From: a virus
Lineage: Duplodnaviria > Heunggongvirae > Uroviricota > Caudoviricetes
Virus record (IMG/VR): IMGVR_UViG_2778261229_000001
Coordinates: 1-46,686 of that record
Length of the DNA stretch: 46,686 bases
Strand: one strand, 5' to 3'
Positions 1-8,347 of this stretch are shown piece by piece. The notes under the pieces are model-generated. The model was not told the origin of the DNA. It searched no databases and saw only the letters and a program-made list of their open reading frames with translations. The position numbers were made by a program, and so were the translations under genes. Numbering within the stretch: the stretch's first letter is position 1; each line of letters starts with the position of its first letter.

Positions 1-1143
1 CTATGCTGTTTTGATATCTACGATAATCCAGTCTTTACCACGATCATCATTGTATCGGTCGGTCATTTTTCTGGATTTATGACCTAACAACTTTTGCGTA
101 TCCAGACCCTGTTCCCGATATAACCGTTCTGACAGAGATCGCTGCTCATGAAATGTGGGCGCAGTTCCTTGCTCCCATTTTATGCCACATTTTTCCCTGG
201 CCTTTTTAAAAGCCGTTGTCAGAGTATTTGCAGAAACCTGGTCTCCTCTGTTTGCTTGAGAGGTAGTGTGATGGTAATGGACCAGATATTTACTAACAAC
301 AGCATCCCTGCACTGAGATATAACTTCACGAAGGGTAATATTCAGAGCATCGCATTTCAGGTTAAGCGGAATAGCAAGTTTTGAACCGGTTTTTTCCTGA
401 GTAATGTGCAACATGTCGTCCCAGATATCAGAGAATTTCAAATTGCAGATATCGCCTAAACGTTGTCCAGTGACAAGAGCAAGTAGCATCCCGCATTTTA
501 AATAGGGCTGCCGTCTGCTTACGCTGTCAAATATTGCCTGCCATTCGGGCAGTGATAATCTTTGGCGGTTTACTCGATTTCGCGGTTGTTTTGTTGCCTG
601 CGCTGGGTTAAATCCTGGCGGAACATGTCCTGCGTGTTGTGCTTCTTTGAAGACGTCGATCAACACCATTCTCACGACTTGCGCCATCCTGTTATGACCT
701 TCAGCCTTTACAGCATCAATTATTTCGGCAATATCAAGTGCGGTAATATCCTTGAGGTGTTGCATTCCACAATGCTCACGGAAAAGACGAATGGGTTTGC
801 CTTTTTGCCGATAGGAGTTGGGTCTTAGTTCATTATGTTGCAGCCTGTCCTCCTGGATAGAAATATATTTATCAAGCCATTCTGTCACCGTAATGTCTGA
901 GCGCCTGCCTTTCATTCTTTCCAGACGCTCATTGACGCTTAATATTTGTCGAGTACGTTGTTCAGCAATAATGGTATTTGCTTCAGTAGCAACTTGTTTT
1001 GCTTCATTCTCATCAGTTCCTAAGCTATGAAAACGACCGGATAGTGGATGTTTGTATTGCCAATATACCTTTCCGGTTCGCTTATCTAATTTGCAATATA
1101 AATTGGGTATAGAGATTTTGTGAGATCGGGGTCTAGCAGCCAT
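1..1143 (-). CDS. int: Tyrosine site-specific integrase (lambda Int family)
   Basis: 380-aa ORF; C-terminal HxxR...Y-type region (..FHEQRSLSERLYREQG..LLGHKS..) resembles lambda Int; position at prophage end next to xis. Confidence 0.88.
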   Translation of the reverse strand: MAARPRSHKISIPNLYCKLDKRTGKVYWQYKHPLSGRFHSLGTDENEAKQVATEANTIIAEQRTRQILSVNERLERMKGRRSDITVTEWLDKYISIQEDRLQHNELRPNSYRQKGKPIRLFREHCGMQHLKDITALDIAEIIDAVKAEGHNRMAQVVRMVLIDVFKEAQHAGHVPPGFNPAQATKQPRNRVNRQRLSLPEWQAIFDSVSRRQPYLKCGMLLALVTGQRLGDICNLKFSDIWDDMLHITQEKTGSKLAIPLNLKCDALNITLREVISQCRDAVVSKYLVHYHHTTSQANRGDQVSANTLTTAFKKAREKCGIKWEQGTAPTFHEQRSLSERLYREQGLDTQKLLGHKSRKMTDRYNDDRGKDWIIVDIKTA

Positions 1144-1369
1144 CAGCGATTATCCTTTGGAGTTTTGGGTTTGCGTTTATTGGGAGTTGCGGTTCTGCAA
1201 GCGTTCCTACAAAACGGGAATTTCGGTCAATCATCCAGTAGCGACCAACTTTTATAGCGGGTGGGGCCATCATTTTCCCTTGCGCGTATTTTTTCAGAAC
1301 TCGCTCACTTGGTGCTAAGTCCCCAAATTCTTCTTTAGCCCAGTCCTGTAAAGTGATTAGTCGAGACAT
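1133..1369 (-). CDS. xis: Excisionase-like protein
   Basis: 78-aa ORF immediately upstream of int and overlapping its start by 11 nt; size and position typical of Xis. Confidence 0.55.
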   Translation of the reverse strand: MSRLITLQDWAKEEFGDLAPSERVLKKYAQGKMMAPPAIKVGRYWMIDRNSRFVGTLAEPQLPINANPKLQRIIADGC

Positions 1370-1508: not shown

Positions 1509-1748
1509 CTATTTCCTGCGCATGTCACGTAACTTCTTAATGTGTTCTGCCGTTTCGATCTCTTCTGCTATCCGATCTGCATCAGCTTTATTCACAGGTT
1601 CAAAGTCATGATTAAAGCGGAACATGCTGGCGATACATGTTTTGCCTTTTCGGATGTAGTGAACTTTGTTGTGGGTAGAACGCAGGATTTTGCAGGGAGT
1701 GCCGTGGTGGTCGACGTACCAGGTGTTAGGGTCAATCACTCTGAACAT
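1509..1748 (-). CDS. Hypothetical early-left protein
   Basis: 79-aa ORF co-oriented with the early-left operon; no recognised motif. Confidence 0.35.
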   Translation of the reverse strand: MFRVIDPNTWYVDHHGTPCKILRSTHNKVHYIRKGKTCIASMFRFNHDFEPVNKADADRIAEEIETAEHIKKLRDMRRK

Positions 1749-2061
1749 TCTTGACCTTGTGTTGTGCGGATTGATATTCAGTGCTGATATTCACCTTTAT
1801 AGCGAACACCTTTACCGGTTTATCGCCAAAGTGCGGATGTGTGATTGTCTTCACTTCATATCCGTCATACGGAACATCAATTCTGCGACTGGAATCGTCG
1901 CGCTTCGGATATCCCTTTGTGATAATCAGGCGGTCATATTCCCGGAACATAATTCGCTTATTCCAGTAGTCATTACACAAGCGATACTCTTCCGTTTTCT
2001 CTCCGCGAATCATGGAATCGAAGTATTCACTTTTAACAGCAAGTTGCAGGTTAGCCATCAC
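1732..2061 (-). CDS. ASCH-domain-like protein
   Basis: 109-aa ORF with GEKTEEYR matching the ASCH GxKxxExR signature. Confidence 0.4.
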   Translation of the reverse strand: MMANLQLAVKSEYFDSMIRGEKTEEYRLCNDYWNKRIMFREYDRLIITKGYPKRDDSSRRIDVPYDGYEVKTITHPHFGDKPVKVFAIKVNISTEYQSAQHKVKNVQSD

Positions 2062-2279
2062 TTAATCCCCCTTTGTTTGCGGATAAGCTCCAGATCTTGC
2101 TGGCAACTGGCGCAAGTCCGACAACCCTGAACGGCCAGTCGTCTTCGTTCATCTATCGGATCGCCACACTCACAACAATGAGTGGCAGATACAGCCAGGT
2201 GGTTCAGGCGGCGCATTTTTATTGCTGTGTTGCGCTGTAATTCTTCTATTTCTGATGCTGAATCAATGATGTCTGCCAT
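2058..2279 (-). CDS. TraR/DksA-family C4 zinc-finger protein
   Basis: 73-aa ORF with CxxC...CxxC (CCECGDPIDERRR...CRTCASCQ) typical of phage TraR-like proteins. Confidence 0.6.
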   Translation of the reverse strand: MADIIDSASEIEELQRNTAIKMRRLNHLAVSATHCCECGDPIDERRRLAVQGCRTCASCQQDLELIRKQRGIK

Positions 2280-2377
2280 CTTCCATTAATCCCTGAATTG
2301 TTGGTTAATACGCTTGAGGGTGAATGCGAACAATAAAAAAGGAGCCTGTAGCTCCCTGAGGATTTTGCTTTTCATGT

Positions 2378-2593
2378 TCACCGTTCCTTAAAGGCGCCGT
2401 TTAACATACCGATTGCCAGACTTAAATGAGTCGGTGTGAATCCCATCAGCGTTACCGTTTCGCGGTGCTTCTTCAGTACGCTACGGCAAATGTCATCGAC
2501 GTTTTTATCCGGAAACTGCTGTCTGGCTTTTTTGATTTCAGAATTAGCCTGACGGGCAATACTGCGAAGGGCGTTTTCTTGCTGAGGTGTCAT
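2378..2593 (-). CDS. Hypothetical protein (start trimmed to internal ATG at 2593)
   Basis: ORF in frame with early-left operon; upstream part of the longer ORF overlaps the Dam gene, so the MTPQQ start is preferred. Confidence 0.3.
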   Translation of the reverse strand: MTPQQENALRSIARQANSEIKKARQQFPDKNVDDICRSVLKKHRETVTLMGFTPTHLSLAIGMLNGAFKER

Positions 2594-2669
2594 TGAACAA
2601 GTCCCATGTCGGCAAGCATAAGCACACAGAATATGAAGCCCGCTGCCAGAAAAATGCATTCCGTGGTTG

Positions 2670-3227
2670 TCATGCAGCCTCCCGACGGGCAAGAATCCTT
2701 GAGCCGAACGCCATCAACTCGCCACGATCAACGGTCGTAAAGTGGCAGTGTGTACGGGGGTATGGGTGCCAGATAATGAGCATCGAGCCTTTATTATTTC
2801 CACTCACGGGTTTCTCGGTGAGTGGGTTAATAAATGCCAGTCGTCCTGCTGTGATGAATCTGACCTCACTGGCGGTTTGTATCGCTTCATGAAACCATCC
2901 GACAGACGTGTCAGCAGGCAATAACATTACACATCCCACACTACTGAATTTGTTTTCGGTGGCTGCCTTTTTCACAAAAGGGGAAATATTGCTGTATGGT
3001 GGATTCAGCCAGACATAACCAGAGGCATATCCCATTGCTTCAGGCCATGAAGTGGTTAATGTGTTCTGCTCCTGTGAGATAAAAAGCCGACATAGCCGGT
3101 TTTTTTCGTTGGCTGCAGCATCAAGTTGAAAAACGAACTCTGCATTCAGCGCAGCAAAAATCTCTGGTGGTGTGCGCCAGCTGTCGCGATGTTCGGCAGG
3201 AGTATTGCTTCCGGTGAAATCAGTCAT
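2670..3227 (-). CDS. Phage DNA N6-adenine methyltransferase (Dam family)
   Basis: 185-aa ORF with NPPY catalytic motif (..YVWLNPPYSN..) characteristic of N6-adenine MTases. Confidence 0.72.
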   Translation of the reverse strand: MTDFTGSNTPAEHRDSWRTPPEIFAALNAEFVFQLDAAANEKNRLCRLFISQEQNTLTTSWPEAMGYASGYVWLNPPYSNISPFVKKAATENKFSSVGCVMLLPADTSVGWFHEAIQTASEVRFITAGRLAFINPLTEKPVSGNNKGSMLIIWHPYPRTHCHFTTVDRGELMAFGSRILARREAA

Positions 3228-3378
3228 ACAGCCCCCCGTTTATTATTTATCTCCTCAGCCAGCCGCTGCGCTTTCAGTGGATTTCTGATAACAGAAAGGC
3301 CGGGAAATACCCAGCCTCGCTTCGTAACGGAGTGGACGAAAGCGATCACGCCTACCCGGATATTATCGTGAGGATGCT

Positions 3379-4059
3379 TCATCGCCATTGCTCCCCAAAT
3401 ACAAAACCAATTTCAGCCAGTGCCTCGTCCATTTTTTCGATGAACTCCGGCACCATCTCGTCAAAACTCGCTATGTACTTTTCATCCCGCTCAACCACGA
3501 CATAATGCAGGCCTTCACGCTTCATACGCGGGTCATAGTTGGAAAAGTACCAGGCATCTTTTCGTGTCACCCACATGCTGTACTGCACCTGGGCCATGTA
3601 AGCCGACTTTATGGCCTCGAAACCACCGAGCCGAAACTTCATGAAATCCCGGGAGGTAAACGGGCATTTCAGCTCAAGGCCATTGCCGTCACTGCATAAA
3701 CCATCGGGAGAGCAGGCGGTGCGCATACTTTCGTCGCGATAGATGATCGGGGATTCAGTAACATTCACGCCGGAAGTGAATTCAAACAGGGTTCTGGCGT
3801 CGTTCTCGTACTGTTTTCCCCAGGCCAGCGCCTTAGCATTAACTTCCGGAGCCACACCGGTGCAAACCTCAGCCAGCAGGGTGTGGAAGTAGGACATTTT
3901 CATGTCAGGCCACTTCTTTCCGGAGCGGGGTTTTGCTATCACGTTGTGAACTTCTGAAGCGGTGATGACGCCGAGCCGTAATTTGTGCCACGCATCATCC
4001 CCCTGTTCGACAGCTCTCACATCGATCCCGGTACGCTGCAGGATAATGTCCGGTGTCAT
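3379..4059 (-). CDS. exo: Lambda exonuclease (Red-alpha)
   Basis: 226-aa protein essentially identical to lambda Exo as recalled ([40 protein letters not shown]...). Confidence 0.95.
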
Positions 4060-4841
4060 GCTGCCACCTTCTGCTCTGCGGCTTTCTGTTTCAGGAATCC
4101 AAGAGCTTTTACTGCTTCGGCCTGTGTCAGTTCTGACGATGCACGAATGTCGCGGCGAAATATCTGGGAACAGAGTGGCAATAAGTCGTCATCCCATGTT
4201 TTATCCAGGGCGATCAGCAGAGTGTTAATCTCCTGCATGGTTTCATCGTTAACCGGAGTGATGTCGCGTTCCGGCTGGCGTTCTGCAGTGTATGCAGTAT
4301 TTTCGACAATGCGCTCGGCTTCATCCTTGTCATAGATACCAGCAAATCCGAAGGCCAGACGGGCACACTGAATCATGGCTTTATGCCGTAACATTCGTTT
4401 GGGATGCGACTGCCACGGCCCCGTGATTTCTCTGCCTTCGCGAGTTTTGAATGGTTCGCGGCGGCATTCATCCATCCATTCGGTAACGCAGATCGGATGA
4501 TTACGGTCCTTGCGGTAAATCCGGCATGTACAGGATTCATTGTCCTGTTCAAAGTCCATGCCGTCAAACTGCTGGTTTTCGTTGATGATGCGGGACCAGC
4601 CATCAACGCCCACCACCGGAACGATGCCGTTCTGCTTATCAGGGAAGGCGTAAATTTCTTTCGTCCACGGATTAAGGCCGTATTGGTTGGCGACGATCAG
4701 CAATGCGATGAACTGCGCATCGCTGGCATCGCCTTTAAATGCTGTCTGGCGAAGAGTGGTGATCAGTTCCTGTGGGTCGACAGAATCCATGCCGACACGT
4801 TCAGCCAGCTTCCCTGCCAGCGTTGCGAGTGCTGTACTCAT
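4056..4841 (-). CDS. bet: Lambda Bet (Red-beta) single-strand annealing protein
   Basis: 261-aa protein matching lambda Bet; overlaps exo start by 4 nt as in lambda. Confidence 0.95.
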
Positions 4842-5218: not shown

Positions 5219-5629
5219 TTAGTGATTCAGGCCGTTACCGCGTCCGTCGAGAAAAACTTCCACGAGCAAATCACGGGTATAAGTGCGCTCGATGCCGCGA
5301 TGCAGATAAAGCCGTCCGCGTAAATTAGCTGATGCAGTCCAGGTACCATCTTTGTGTTTGACCAGCATTCCTGGCATGACCGCACCTCGATTAACGGTCT
5401 GCGTTCCGTAATGTTGATGAACCATAAAAACTCCTGCCCGTAAGCTGGGCTGCTGAACATATAGAGACTTCTGCGCGTATTCAGGCGGTGGATGGCCGCC
5501 GGTTGTCATAACTAAGCCGCCTCGTTGAAGCGACTGAGGTATGAGGTGTTGAGTTGATTTCAGCTGGTCACACCGACGTTCACACGTCCGTTTCACCCCT
5601 CGCACTCCCCGGAGCCTGCTGAAATTCAA
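5219..5629 (-). CDS. Hypothetical protein, first gene downstream of the putative pL (N position); Arg-rich N-terminus
   Basis: 136-aa ORF directly downstream of the predicted leftward promoter/operators; no confident similarity to lambda N; an alternative-frame ORF (5227-5460) also exists. Confidence 0.3.
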   Translation of the reverse strand: MNFSRLRGVRGVKRTCERRCDQLKSTQHLIPQSLQRGGLVMTTGGHPPPEYAQKSLYVQQPSLRAGVFMVHQHYGTQTVNRGAVMPGMLVKHKDGTWTASANLRGRLYLHRGIERTYTRDLLVEVFLDGRGNGLNH

Positions 5630-5702
5630 GCTGCGGATCTAAGCGGTCATCGCAACGGTGAATCAGGTGGTTGCCGTATCGTTGTGTTGTTGCGATGAAC
5701 TC

Positions 5703-5731
5703 ATTTAAAACTATAGTTGTTTTACCGTCAA
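5703..5731 (-). promoter_or_regulatory. Putative pL promoter with overlapping operator OL1
   Basis: Minus-strand TTGACG-17 nt-TTAAAT; spacer carries AAAACTATAGTTGTTTT, near-identical to the operator in the pR spacer; further GTTGTTT half-sites to 5781. Confidence 0.5.
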
Positions 5732-5788
5732 CAACAAAAGTTGTTTCATTGGTTGTTTTAGATATAACTGGTTGTATTTAGGATGGAT

Positions 5789-6412
5789 TTATTTTGTGAC
5801 TTGCATCGCATAGCGATAACTGAAGCGGGGGGTATGGTGGTTTTTTGAACGGTGTGTGATGAGGGGAGGCAAAAGAAAACCCGGCACGACGGCCGGGGAG
5901 GGGGGGCATTTTAATCTATCAAGGAGTGACTCTCTTTCCTTCTTCTCTGATTCTCTTCGGTTTAATAACGCTTTAAACTCTTGAAGCTCAACCATTATTT
6001 TATGAACGAATACACTGGTATAGAGAGAAATAAAGAGTAATCCACCTGAAATTTTTAAGACCCTGAAGAGTAGGGCTTGATCATTTGTGCTTGCTATTAA
6101 CCCCAAGATTACAAACAAAGTTGAAAATACATAGAAAGCTAATAATAAAACCAATTTCAGTCTCTTGGATTTGACTATTGGCACTAATCGCCTAACCTCA
6201 CTAGGGGTTAAAGACGAGTGGTCATTGGCCTCATTTGCCTTAAAAATGGCTTGTATACAATATGATAATGGCAATTGCATGAGTCCAACCACAGCCCACG
6301 GAGCAGTTAGGACAACACCCGGTGTAATATAGCCCAATGCTGACTTGAACAAAAAGTAACCAGCAAAATAGAAGACCAACATACCAATAAGGTGGATGAT
6401 GTTCGATTTCAT
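5789..6412 (-). CDS. Four-TM membrane protein of the rex-position cassette (RexB-position analogue)
   Basis: 207-aa ORF; four hydrophobic segments then a charged coiled-coil-like stretch; RBS AGGAGGG upstream; 21 nt after the upstream gene; AT-rich; last ~40 codons run into GC-rich backbone. Confidence 0.6.
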   Translation of the reverse strand: MKSNIIHLIGMLVFYFAGYFLFKSALGYITPGVVLTAPWAVVGLMQLPLSYCIQAIFKANEANDHSSLTPSEVRRLVPIVKSKRLKLVLLLAFYVFSTLFVILGLIASTNDQALLFRVLKISGGLLFISLYTSVFVHKIMVELQEFKALLNRRESEKKERESLLDRLKCPPSPAVVPGFLLPPLITHRSKNHHTPRFSYRYAMQVTK

Positions 6413-6433: not shown

Positions 6434-7456
6434 TTATTTTGCAACCAATTCTCCGGCATCAAGTTTTGAGAACAGCCACTTATGCATTTTTAAGAATAAA
6501 TCATTTTCATCAATAATGCCATTGTTATATTCAACGCTAATTTTTCCGGATAATTTTATCTCTTTTCCCGTTATTTCCCCACCGCCTTGAAGTTTGATGC
6601 TAATATCATCCTCATCTAGATGTCGTAGTGAGGTAGCAATACTGTCTATAACAGCTTGACCGCTATCATTTGTTTTTCTGAAGTATGTAATCTCGAGGCT
6701 TACTTGTAAATTGGCCTCATCTAATGAATCTTTAATGTTTATATCATTTGCCCAGTTATCGCCAAAAAATGCTTTTAGTAGCGCACCTCCTTTCCCTATT
6801 GGGCGGTATTTTATTGTCTTCACCGAACCATTTGAAAAGGAGGGTGTTTGGTTCTCTGAATTTTTAACTTCTGAAGTAATGGGTAATCCACCAATTTTTA
6901 TGCTCTTGGCTGGTGCTTTCTCCATTTTTTTCATCGTTTCTTCGGATGGCTTATCTTGAAGCATTAACACAGATTCTTTTTCATCTGTGAATGTATTAAT
7001 TAGCCAATTCAAATGCGCCTCAAGCTCCCTTGCTCGAAGCGATGTGGATTGAACGATCATGACATGGTTGTTTAGTACACCAAAATATAAAATTGAATCT
7101 ACAAACTCTCTTTTTTTGTCACTACGTTTATCTCCATCAATAATTATATCATTAGACGTGATGGAGTTAATGTCATAAAATTTAACATTATCACTAAGCT
7201 CTAATAGAGACTGGCTTTTGTCTTTTTCAAATAAAACCAGTTGCCCAAAAAGTATAGTTTTGTATGTGTCGCTTTTATTTAAGAAACGATACCCCGAATT
7301 TTCATCTGAAGGTGTTATTTTTTCTTGTCTACTAAGTACTTTTTCTGCAACGCCGCCCTCACCTATAATACTAAGTAGTATGTTTTGTAATGATGATTTG
7401 CTGTGTGGGATTACTGCTTTTTTATAATGAACGACTTTTTGTCTGTTATCTTTCAT
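6434..7456 (-). CDS. 340-aa soluble protein of the rex-position cassette (RexA-position analogue), function unknown
   Basis: Long AT-rich ORF downstream of and co-oriented with cI; no TM segments; no motif I recognise. Confidence 0.6.
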   Translation of the reverse strand: MKDNRQKVVHYKKAVIPHSKSSLQNILLSIIGEGGVAEKVLSRQEKITPSDENSGYRFLNKSDTYKTILFGQLVLFEKDKSQSLLELSDNVKFYDINSITSNDIIIDGDKRSDKKREFVDSILYFGVLNNHVMIVQSTSLRARELEAHLNWLINTFTDEKESVLMLQDKPSEETMKKMEKAPAKSIKIGGLPITSEVKNSENQTPSFSNGSVKTIKYRPIGKGGALLKAFFGDNWANDINIKDSLDEANLQVSLEITYFRKTNDSGQAVIDSIATSLRHLDEDDISIKLQGGGEITGKEIKLSGKISVEYNNGIIDENDLFLKMHKWLFSKLDAGELVAK

Positions 7457-8278: not shown

Positions 8279-8347
8279 TACAACCAAGGTTTTATTCCAT
8301 CAAACGAAAATGGTTGTTGACTAAAAACAACCATAGTTTTAATCTTG
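8279..8347. promoter_or_regulatory. OR operator region with putative pR (TTGACT-17-TAATCT) and three operator-like repeats
   Basis: Repeats of ACAACCA(A/T)(A/G)GTTTT motif at about 8282-8297, 8300-8319, 8324-8340; 25-bp palindrome ATGGTTGTT-N7-AACAACCAT at 8310-8334. Confidence 0.55.

Follow-up and report, generated by a model that had tools for sequence, protein, structure and literature searches.

An exo-xis block of a lambda-like Escherichia coli prophage with a phage adenine methyltransferase gene in place of orf63

Background

Lambda and the Stx phages carry an early-left, non-essential accessory segment between the genes exo and xis, and several products of this segment have been studied. 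Purified lambda Orf73 binds RNA polymerase (Gopalkrishnan et al., PMC9239242), inhibits the promoters rrnB P1 and rpsT P2 both in vitro and in vivo, complements a dksA-null strain, slows the growth of the host, and raises the phage yield about 4-fold (PMC9239242). Phenotypes of Orf60a and Orf61 are known from phage genetics in lambda and Phi24B (PMC6213356, PMC8614690), and the orf61 gene of the lambda reference has already been published as a truncated form of a full-length gene (PMC8614690). In this work, we analyzed the corresponding segment in a stretch of 46,686 nucleotides (nt) from a virus of the Caudoviricetes, positions 1 to 46,686 of the IMG/VR record IMGVR_UViG_2778261229_000001. 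This whole stretch is referred to as the window, and the genes that lie between xis and exo, around positions 1509-3227, are referred to as the block.

Relatives of other block proteins have been characterized outside the exo-xis region. The T1/HP1/VT2 'Dam' family of phage N6-adenine DNA methyltransferases includes M.EcoVT2Dam, which methylates GATC (PMC6602927), M.EcoT1Dam, which methylates the same sequence, and M.Btr190III, which is 35% identical to M.EcoT1Dam and also methylates GATC, with marked off-target activity when cloned (PMC4996451). In the DUF4222 family, the one member that has been studied is RgdR (ECs1581), a prophage regulator of E. coli O157:H7 with an activating effect on LEE1 and type III secretion and a repressing effect on motility (PMC3378721, PMC10877973); its RGD tripeptide is needed for the activation of type III secretion (PMC3378721).

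A first-pass annotation made from the sequence alone described the block as a cluster of small accessory genes and proposed that it forms a host-takeover and anti-restriction module. Here, protein family models, local alignments with named phages, a survey of complete E. coli genomes, and fold comparisons were applied to the same genes. The block is very probably the exo-xis segment of an intact lambda-like prophage located beside icd, assembled from cassettes that have been exchanged independently of one another.

Results

Identity and mosaic structure of the block

The block is bounded on the left by the excisionase gene xis (1133-1369, minus strand; PF07825, phrog_629) and on the right by the exonuclease gene exo (3379-4059, minus strand; PF09588, E = 6e-30), the DNA of which is about 97% identical to lambda. 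Five minus-strand genes, all intact, occupy positions 1509-3227; the sixth, orf60a (3224-3388), is found just past this range, before exo. The first-pass annotation had placed an early-left accessory cluster on the minus strand between xis and exo, and all the features that it described were found at their positions; its count of four to five genes has to be raised to six open reading frames (ORFs). In the direction of transcription, these are orf60a, the methyltransferase gene, orf61, orf73, the gene for an ASCH-like protein, and the gene for a DUF4222 protein. Stop and start codons overlap at the exo/orf60a, orf60a/methyltransferase, orf73/ASCH, and ASCH/DUF4222 junctions, which is the usual mark of translational coupling. 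As judged by conservation, the six ORFs are real genes rather than chance reading frames, because each of them has hundreds of conserved homologues.

The gene order from the integrase end of the minus strand is int (1-1143), xis, the block, exo, bet, gam, and kil. Rightward of kil follow a LexA-type repressor, the replication genes O and P, NinB, and the antiterminator Q, and ORFs run on through the remaining window. The set of phage modules is complete. Over 2151 bases around the block, the sequence is 100% identical to the prophage adjoining icd in E. coli A20, for which RefSeq gives the names DUF4222 protein, ASCH domain protein, TraR/DksA family regulator, hypothetical protein, phage N-6-adenine-methyltransferase, DUF1317 protein, and lambda exonuclease. 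The block is thus an ordinary and already known feature, a textbook lambdoid region whose exact sequence is named gene by gene in RefSeq; the earlier gene identifications stood, but they had been made without recognizing this named and studied region. A literature search by the RefSeq accessions of five block proteins found nothing, and NCBIfam gave no match for the DUF4222, ASCH-like, Orf61, or Orf60a protein.

Local alignments with named phages divide the block into segments of different distribution. Window positions 2068-2673 (orf73, an intergenic hairpin, and orf61) and 3225-4100 (orf60a and exo) are 96-97% identical to lambda; positions 1100-2673 are 98% identical to phage ev207, which has the same DUF4222-ASCH-orf73 trio; and positions 2054-4100 are 96% identical to PhiR30_1, where the methyltransferase gene is shared and the ASCH gene is absent. 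Relative to lambda and ev207, the methyltransferase cassette has its limits at 2674-3224 and replaces orf63/DUF1382 exactly at the gene boundaries, and the ASCH gene forms a separate cassette that is either present or absent. Among the core exo-xis genes, orf60a, orf61, and orf73 are present (92-98% identity), and orf63 and ea22 are absent and replaced; other named lambdoid phages show these substitutions as well.

The survey of 5426 complete E. coli genomes points in the same direction. Of these, 3932 have the block at least in part, but only 24 have 80% or more of it. The methyltransferase cassette was found in 312 genomes, with DUF1317 lying under the match in nearly all, among the matches listed, and the ASCH cassette in 1487 genomes, with varied neighbours. 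The block is not a co-adapted module, because the methyltransferase gene exactly replaces orf63 and the ASCH gene comes and goes alone. From these comparisons, the block genes appear to be independently exchangeable alleles in a conserved slot rather than parts of one co-evolved machine, and the term "module" in the first-pass annotation was an overstatement. For a lambda-like E. coli prophage, the block as a whole is a common mosaic, in which orf63 has given way to the gene of a small phage adenine methyltransferase.

Orf73, a TraR-family protein

The product of orf73 (2058-2279, minus strand), 73 amino acids (aa) long, is a TraR-family C4 zinc-finger protein that is 92% identical to lambda Orf73. 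It scores 36 bits with the dksA/traR zinc-finger model PF01258 (cut-off 24.9) and 56 bits, slightly below the cut-off of 59.7, with the narrower model TIGR02419. The motif criteria for the TraR subfamily (DxxDxA, CxxC-17-CxxC, and basic residues) were taken from PMC9239242. The protein keeps the N-terminal D3xxD6xA8 motif and a CxxC-17-CxxC finger formed by C35/C38/C56/C59; its basic run R44-R46 aligns with R48/R49 of TraR, and C36 and C53, the extra cysteines that distinguish lambda Orf73 from TraR, are also retained. Six of the 73 residues are substituted relative to lambda Orf73 (Q27L, I29V, V48A, E60Q, S66R, and S72I), none of them in the motifs named as functional.

The earlier identification of a TraR/DksA C4 zinc-finger protein is therefore upheld, and RNA polymerase binding, on which its interpretation had been made to depend, has been shown for the nearly identical lambda Orf73 (PMC9239242). 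Because the 92% identical lambda protein has been tested and the functional motifs are kept, a host-takeover role through RNA polymerase binding and inhibition of rRNA promoters is well supported by homology for Orf73. The proposal of host takeover is supported for this one protein only. The TraR-like gene can be annotated as an orthologue of lambda orf73 with a known mechanism.

The methyltransferase in the orf63 slot

The gene at 2670-3227 (minus strand), in the slot of lambda orf63, encodes a 185-aa orphan N6-adenine DNA methyltransferase that belongs to the T1/HP1/VT2 'Dam' family. The protein matches PF05869 (E = 3e-56, 190 bits against a cut-off of 28.1) over positions 1-168 of the 169 in the model, and the equivalog model TIGR01712 over its full length (164 bits against a cut-off of 97). 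It contains NPPY at residues 75-78 and a motif-I-like DAAA at residues 36-39. An alignment of 34 sequences, VT2-Sakai orf32 among them, has 42 invariant positions, and the protein retains every one. The first-pass call of an N6-adenine methyltransferase with an NPPY motif, which had been staked on the presence of the catalytic motif, is borne out by the family models and by these intact motifs and invariant residues, and the enzyme is predicted to be catalytically competent. Its neighbours are orf61 and orf60a, with no restriction gene alongside; it is the sole match of PADLOC among the block proteins, with 'orphan methyltransferase' as the best label, and the only methyltransferase of the PF05869/TIGR01712 type in the window.

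The protein shares 46% identity with VT2-Sakai orf32, and about 40-46% with the enzymes of T1-like phages; in the phage collection, one record is at least 99% identical to it and nine are at 60-80%. We take VT2-Sakai orf32 to be M.EcoVT2Dam, because it is the only methyltransferase annotated in VT2-Sakai. Since the studied family members M.EcoVT2Dam, M.EcoT1Dam, and M.Btr190III all methylate GATC, this sequence is the most likely predicted target, possibly with relaxed specificity. Single-sequence and profile searches of solved structures with the methyltransferase gave nothing significant, and no structure of the family was detectable by sequence. GATC occurs at 116 sites in the window, 0.54 of the number expected from the Markov model; the ratios for CTAG and GGCC, 0.53 and 0.63, are likewise below expectation. 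GATC depletion was set aside as uninformative about the target.

The Dam enzyme of normal E. coli hosts already makes the GATC mark. An anti-restriction role of the phage enzyme is doubtful and at best putative, because every normal E. coli host already has Dam. It is no less plausible that the enzyme serves to methylate the rapidly replicating phage DNA fully, or to make the phage independent of host Dam. The enzyme is thus best treated as a predicted GATC-type orphan of the lytic phase rather than as an anti-restriction device. The methylome of an uninduced lysogen in a Dam+ host would not reveal its target, because the operon would be repressed there and host Dam would mask GATC methylation.

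The ASCH-like and DUF4222 proteins

The ASCH-like protein (1732-2058, minus strand; 108 aa from ATG; phrog_625, E = 6.5e-51) is encoded directly after orf73, its ATG sharing one base with the orf73 stop codon (TGATG). The sequence GEKTEEYR at residues 19-26 fits the ASCH motif GxKxxExR (G19, K21, E24, and R26). A profile search found 1288 cluster representatives, and 127 relatives were taken from the best 150; K21 is the same in all 127, and G19, E24, and R26 are each kept in at least 90% of them. The Pfam ASCH model (PF04266) covers only residues 6-28 (E = 0.075; score 14.2 bits, cut-off 21.2), and 10 of the 127 relatives reach this model (E <= 0.01) and 4 the related DUF3850. Searches of solved structures by sequence gave nothing significant, with 3iuw at only E = 0.35 in the profile search. 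The best Foldseek match is an ASCH protein, and the solved structures closest to the predicted PUA-like beta-barrel all belong to the ASCH clan rather than to YTH domains. The ASCH signature reported in the first-pass annotation is thus confirmed, and the ASCH assignment is supported by the predicted fold but remains below the cut-off of the Pfam model by sequence. The name 'ASCH-like' is a fair statement about the predicted fold, which is a PUA-like barrel of the kind that binds RNA or nucleosides, and no enzymatic activity is transferable at this distance.

The last gene of the block (1509-1748, minus strand), which had been left unnamed, encodes a 79-aa DUF4222-domain protein (PF13973, E = 2e-18; phrog_285, E = 2e-36), which is distantly related to RgdR. 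The start of this gene and the ASCH stop overlap by 17 nt. With a cut-off of 27 bits for PF13973, it scores 66 bits and RgdR 82 bits. The two proteins are 24% identical, and there is no RGD in the 79 aa of the window protein, which by these comparisons is to be regarded as a member of the family and not as an orthologue of RgdR. According to the fold evidence, it is an SH3/Tudor-like barrel related to this regulator. An AT-rich inverted repeat, the stem of which measures about 16 bp, is located at 1463-1501, directly downstream of the DUF4222 stop and before xis; it has a T-run on the plus strand only and lies inside the segment shared with ev207 at 98% identity.

UvrD/PcrA and CarD dock on RNA polymerase through C-terminal Tudor domains, and the genes for Orf73, the ASCH-like protein, and the DUF4222 protein are three translationally coupled genes downstream of a conserved hairpin. 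It is conceivable, if quite improbable, that the DUF4222 protein and the RgdR family form a Tudor/SH3-like domain that docks on RNA polymerase, in which case the orf73-ASCH-DUF4222 sub-unit would be aimed at the host transcription machinery and its RNA. If true, such docking would provide a mechanism for the pleiotropic effects of RgdR on LEE1 and motility.

Orf61 and Orf60a

The gene that the first-pass annotation had listed as hypothetical is present, and its missed identity is orf61 (2378-2659, minus strand; phrog_303, E = 1e-42). It encodes a full-length Orf61 of 93 aa from the ATG at 2659, which is 98% identical to VT2-Sakai orf10, annotated as 'similar to orf61 of lambda'. The start is uncertain: the protein has 71 aa from 2593 (RefSeq), 93 aa from 2659, or 104 aa from a TTG at 2692, and none of these starts has a strong ribosome-binding site. 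The lambda orf61 (30.7-31.0 kb) is frameshifted, and its missing C-terminal part continues in another frame that matches the C-terminal half of the window protein. No Pfam family reached its threshold for Orf61, and weak matches to ZapA and to a viral zinc-binding family were discarded as below threshold. VT2-Sakai orf10 is labelled 'cell division protein ZapA' in RefSeq. The Pfam ZapA model matches Orf61 at E = 0.014-0.017 with 16 bits against a cut-off of 23.8, and the ZapA label on the Orf61 proteins of Stx phages looks like an over-annotation.

Orf60a (3224-3388, minus strand; 54 aa) is a DUF1317 protein (PF07026, E = 2e-32) that is 93% identical to lambda Orf60a. Its stop overlaps the start of the methyltransferase gene (ATGA), and its start overlaps the exo stop. 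By analogy with their lambda and Phi24B counterparts, Orf60a and Orf61 would bias the lysis-lysogeny decision and prophage induction.

Promoter and hairpins of the early-left operon

A putative leftward early promoter with operator is located at 5700-5735 on the minus strand, upstream of kil, with the sigma-70-like sequence TTGACG-17-TTAAAT. A 31-nt element within it (5705-5735) recurs in inverted orientation at 8313-8342, adjoining the start of the repressor gene, with 87% identity. This arrangement suggests a repressor-controlled promoter for kil-gam-bet-exo and the block. The early-left operon seems to begin with a leader of about 270 nt that is followed at once by kil (5219-5425); shuffled sequence folds as well as this 274-nt leader (z = -0.77).

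The consensus scan detected terminator-like hairpins on the minus strand. Its best site is inside orf60a, just downstream of exo (3296-3318; a 9-bp stem with 6 G-C pairs), and matches lambda at about 31.25-31.30 kb with 97% identity over 56 nt; presumably this is lambda tL3. The other, between orf61 and orf73 (2339-2357), has an 8-bp stem and then the T-run TTTTTTATT, and it is identical and in the same position in lambda, ev207, and PhiR30_1. Both hairpin stems are identical in lambda. We dropped the equation of the hairpin at 2339-2357 with tL3, which lies just after exo and would fit 3296-3318. In a search for an N/nut system or an HK022-type put RNA by which read-through of the two hairpins might be explained, no boxB-like hairpin and no similarity to the HK022 early region with its put region were found, and Rfam detected no known RNA family anywhere in the window.

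Other features of the prophage

Two genes at 5789-6412 and 6434-7456 (minus strand) are located directly downstream of the repressor gene and on the same strand, in the position of lambda rexA/rexB. Of their products, one has 340 aa, and the other has 207 aa and a hydrophobic N-terminal half. No tblastn match to lambda RexA or RexB was found in the window, and searches with both proteins in Pfam and PADLOC gave no match, only the function-unassigned families phrog_3482 and phrog_16807 being identified among the PHROGs. They may represent an exclusion or defence pair expressed in the lysogen. In the lambda cII position, a YdaT-family protein is encoded at 8673-9212 on the plus strand (PF06254, E = 1.5e-29). 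Because this protein occupies the cII position, the immunity region is of the Rac/YdaS-YdaT type and not of the lambda type.

A cargo insert lies between the replication gene P and the nin region (11176-15084, plus strand, and 15121-16164, minus strand). The product of its first gene is an inverse autotransporter of 1302 aa from the intimin/invasin family (IAT_beta, E = 5e-101), in which Big_1 and Invasin_D3 domains are repeated; the second, convergent gene encodes a 347-aa alpha/beta-hydrolase esterase (BD-FAE, E = 1e-43).

Discussion

Model of block function and points that weigh against it

The gene order suggests that the block is transcribed leftward together with kil-gam-bet-exo from a repressor-controlled early promoter, and that it would stay switched off in the lysogen and be expressed during the first minutes that follow induction or infection. 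Orf73 would then enter the secondary channel of the host RNA polymerase and inhibit promoters of rRNA and ribosomal-protein genes, and its action would divert host resources and raise the phage yield. The methyltransferase would maintain full methylation of the fast-replicating phage DNA under conditions in which host Dam is absent or limiting.

Several points weigh against this interpretation. The promoter assignment rests on gene order and a match to the consensus, and the GATC target is extrapolated from relatives that are only 35-46% identical. The phenotypes reported for orf73 are in conflict, one study describing it as pro-lysogenic (PMC8614690) and the other reporting a higher lytic yield (PMC9239242). 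In addition, no homologue of N, cIII, or ral was detected in the window by tblastn (with N queries from lambda, ev207, and VT2-Sakai, and cIII and ral queries from lambda), and two conserved terminator-like hairpins are present on the coding strand of the block. N-dependent read-through as in lambda therefore cannot simply be assumed, and the genes past the hairpin at 2339-2357, orf73 and those for the ASCH-like and DUF4222 proteins, might be expressed differently from the others.

Alternative explanations

The proposal of a co-adapted host-takeover and anti-restriction module, in which the methyltransferase shields the phage DNA and the TraR-like protein shuts down the host, is unlikely. It agrees with an intact methyltransferase without a nuclease partner, labelled as an orphan by PADLOC, in an operon that by gene order is expressed early, and the effect of Orf73 on the host is real. 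However, the predicted GATC mark is already set by host Dam and would protect only against enzymes that cut unmethylated GATC; lambda and ev207 have no methyltransferase at this position; and exchange of the methyltransferase gene is independent of that of the other genes. Its cassette is in 312 genomes and the ASCH cassette in 1487, and at least 80% of the block in only 24. A somewhat better chance, albeit still a low one, is given to a target of the methyltransferase that differs from GATC or is much relaxed, which would produce a new pattern of adenine methylation on phage and host DNA in lytic growth. The nearest member with a published target is only 46% identical, the enzyme belongs to a separate branch (the one record at 99% or more and the nine at 60-80% mentioned above), its cloned relative M.Btr190III has marked off-target activity, and searches by sequence detected no solved structure in the family that would allow specificity to be read. 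Against this, every studied member methylates GATC even at 35% identity, and a protein of 185 aa, compared with 169 model positions, has no extra domain for a new recognition module.

A pairing of the ASCH protein and the methyltransferase as reader and writer, with the PUA-like domain reading N6-methyladenine, is highly improbable and was rejected on the independent distribution of the two genes. In ev207, the ASCH gene coexists with orf63 in the methyltransferase slot, PhiR30_1 has the methyltransferase gene without an ASCH gene, the numbers of genomes are very unequal (1487 versus 312) and the neighbours of the ASCH gene varied, and the structures nearest to the ASCH-like protein are ASCH proteins, not YTH domains. 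Equally remote is the view that the block ORFs are decaying, functionless remnants in a cryptic prophage. Nothing specific speaks for it beyond the many E. coli copies of the region that are interrupted by insertion sequence (IS) elements and the truncated orf61 of lambda itself. In contrast, all six ORFs are intact and keep the family-invariant residues, their stop/start overlaps are those of translationally coupled genes, and the window has its complete set of phage modules. The exo-xis segment of an intact prophage, with independently exchanged cassettes, remains the preferred interpretation. Beyond correct annotation, this finding matters little and holds nothing to surprise a specialist; among E. 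coli prophages, the ASCH cassette and the DUF4222 cassette are both very common.

Comparison with known systems

The DUF4222 protein resembles RgdR in belonging to the same Pfam family, in being small, and in being prophage-borne. It differs in that RgdR has 99 aa and is encoded in a P4-like element beside a primase gene, whereas the window protein has 79 aa and is encoded in the exo-xis region. The ASCH-like protein has the GxKxxExR motif and, by prediction, the PUA-like barrel in common with E. coli YqfB (an N4-acetylcytidine amidohydrolase), Zymomonas ZmASCH (a ribonuclease), and E. faecalis 3iuw. The methyltransferase shares with M.EcoVT2Dam, M.EcoT1Dam, and HP1 Dam the family, the size, the NPPY and DAAA motifs, and the orphan state; VT2-Sakai orf32 is located in the nin region between ninB and ninE, whereas the gene described here lies in the exo-xis region.

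The closest described system is the exo-xis region of lambda and the Stx phages (orf60a, orf63, orf61, orf73, ea22, and ea8.5), which occupies the same position between xis and exo. In both, orf60a, orf61, and orf73 follow in the same order, with 92-98% identity of the proteins and 96-97% identity of the DNA, and two conserved hairpins are common to both. Lambda has N, cIII, and ral, for which this phage has no homologue, and a truncated orf61, where the full-length form of the Stx phages is found here. In place of ea22, ea8.5, and orf55 of lambda, the block has the ASCH and DUF4222 genes, as in ev207 and phage 21, and exactly in the place of lambda orf63 it carries the methyltransferase gene.

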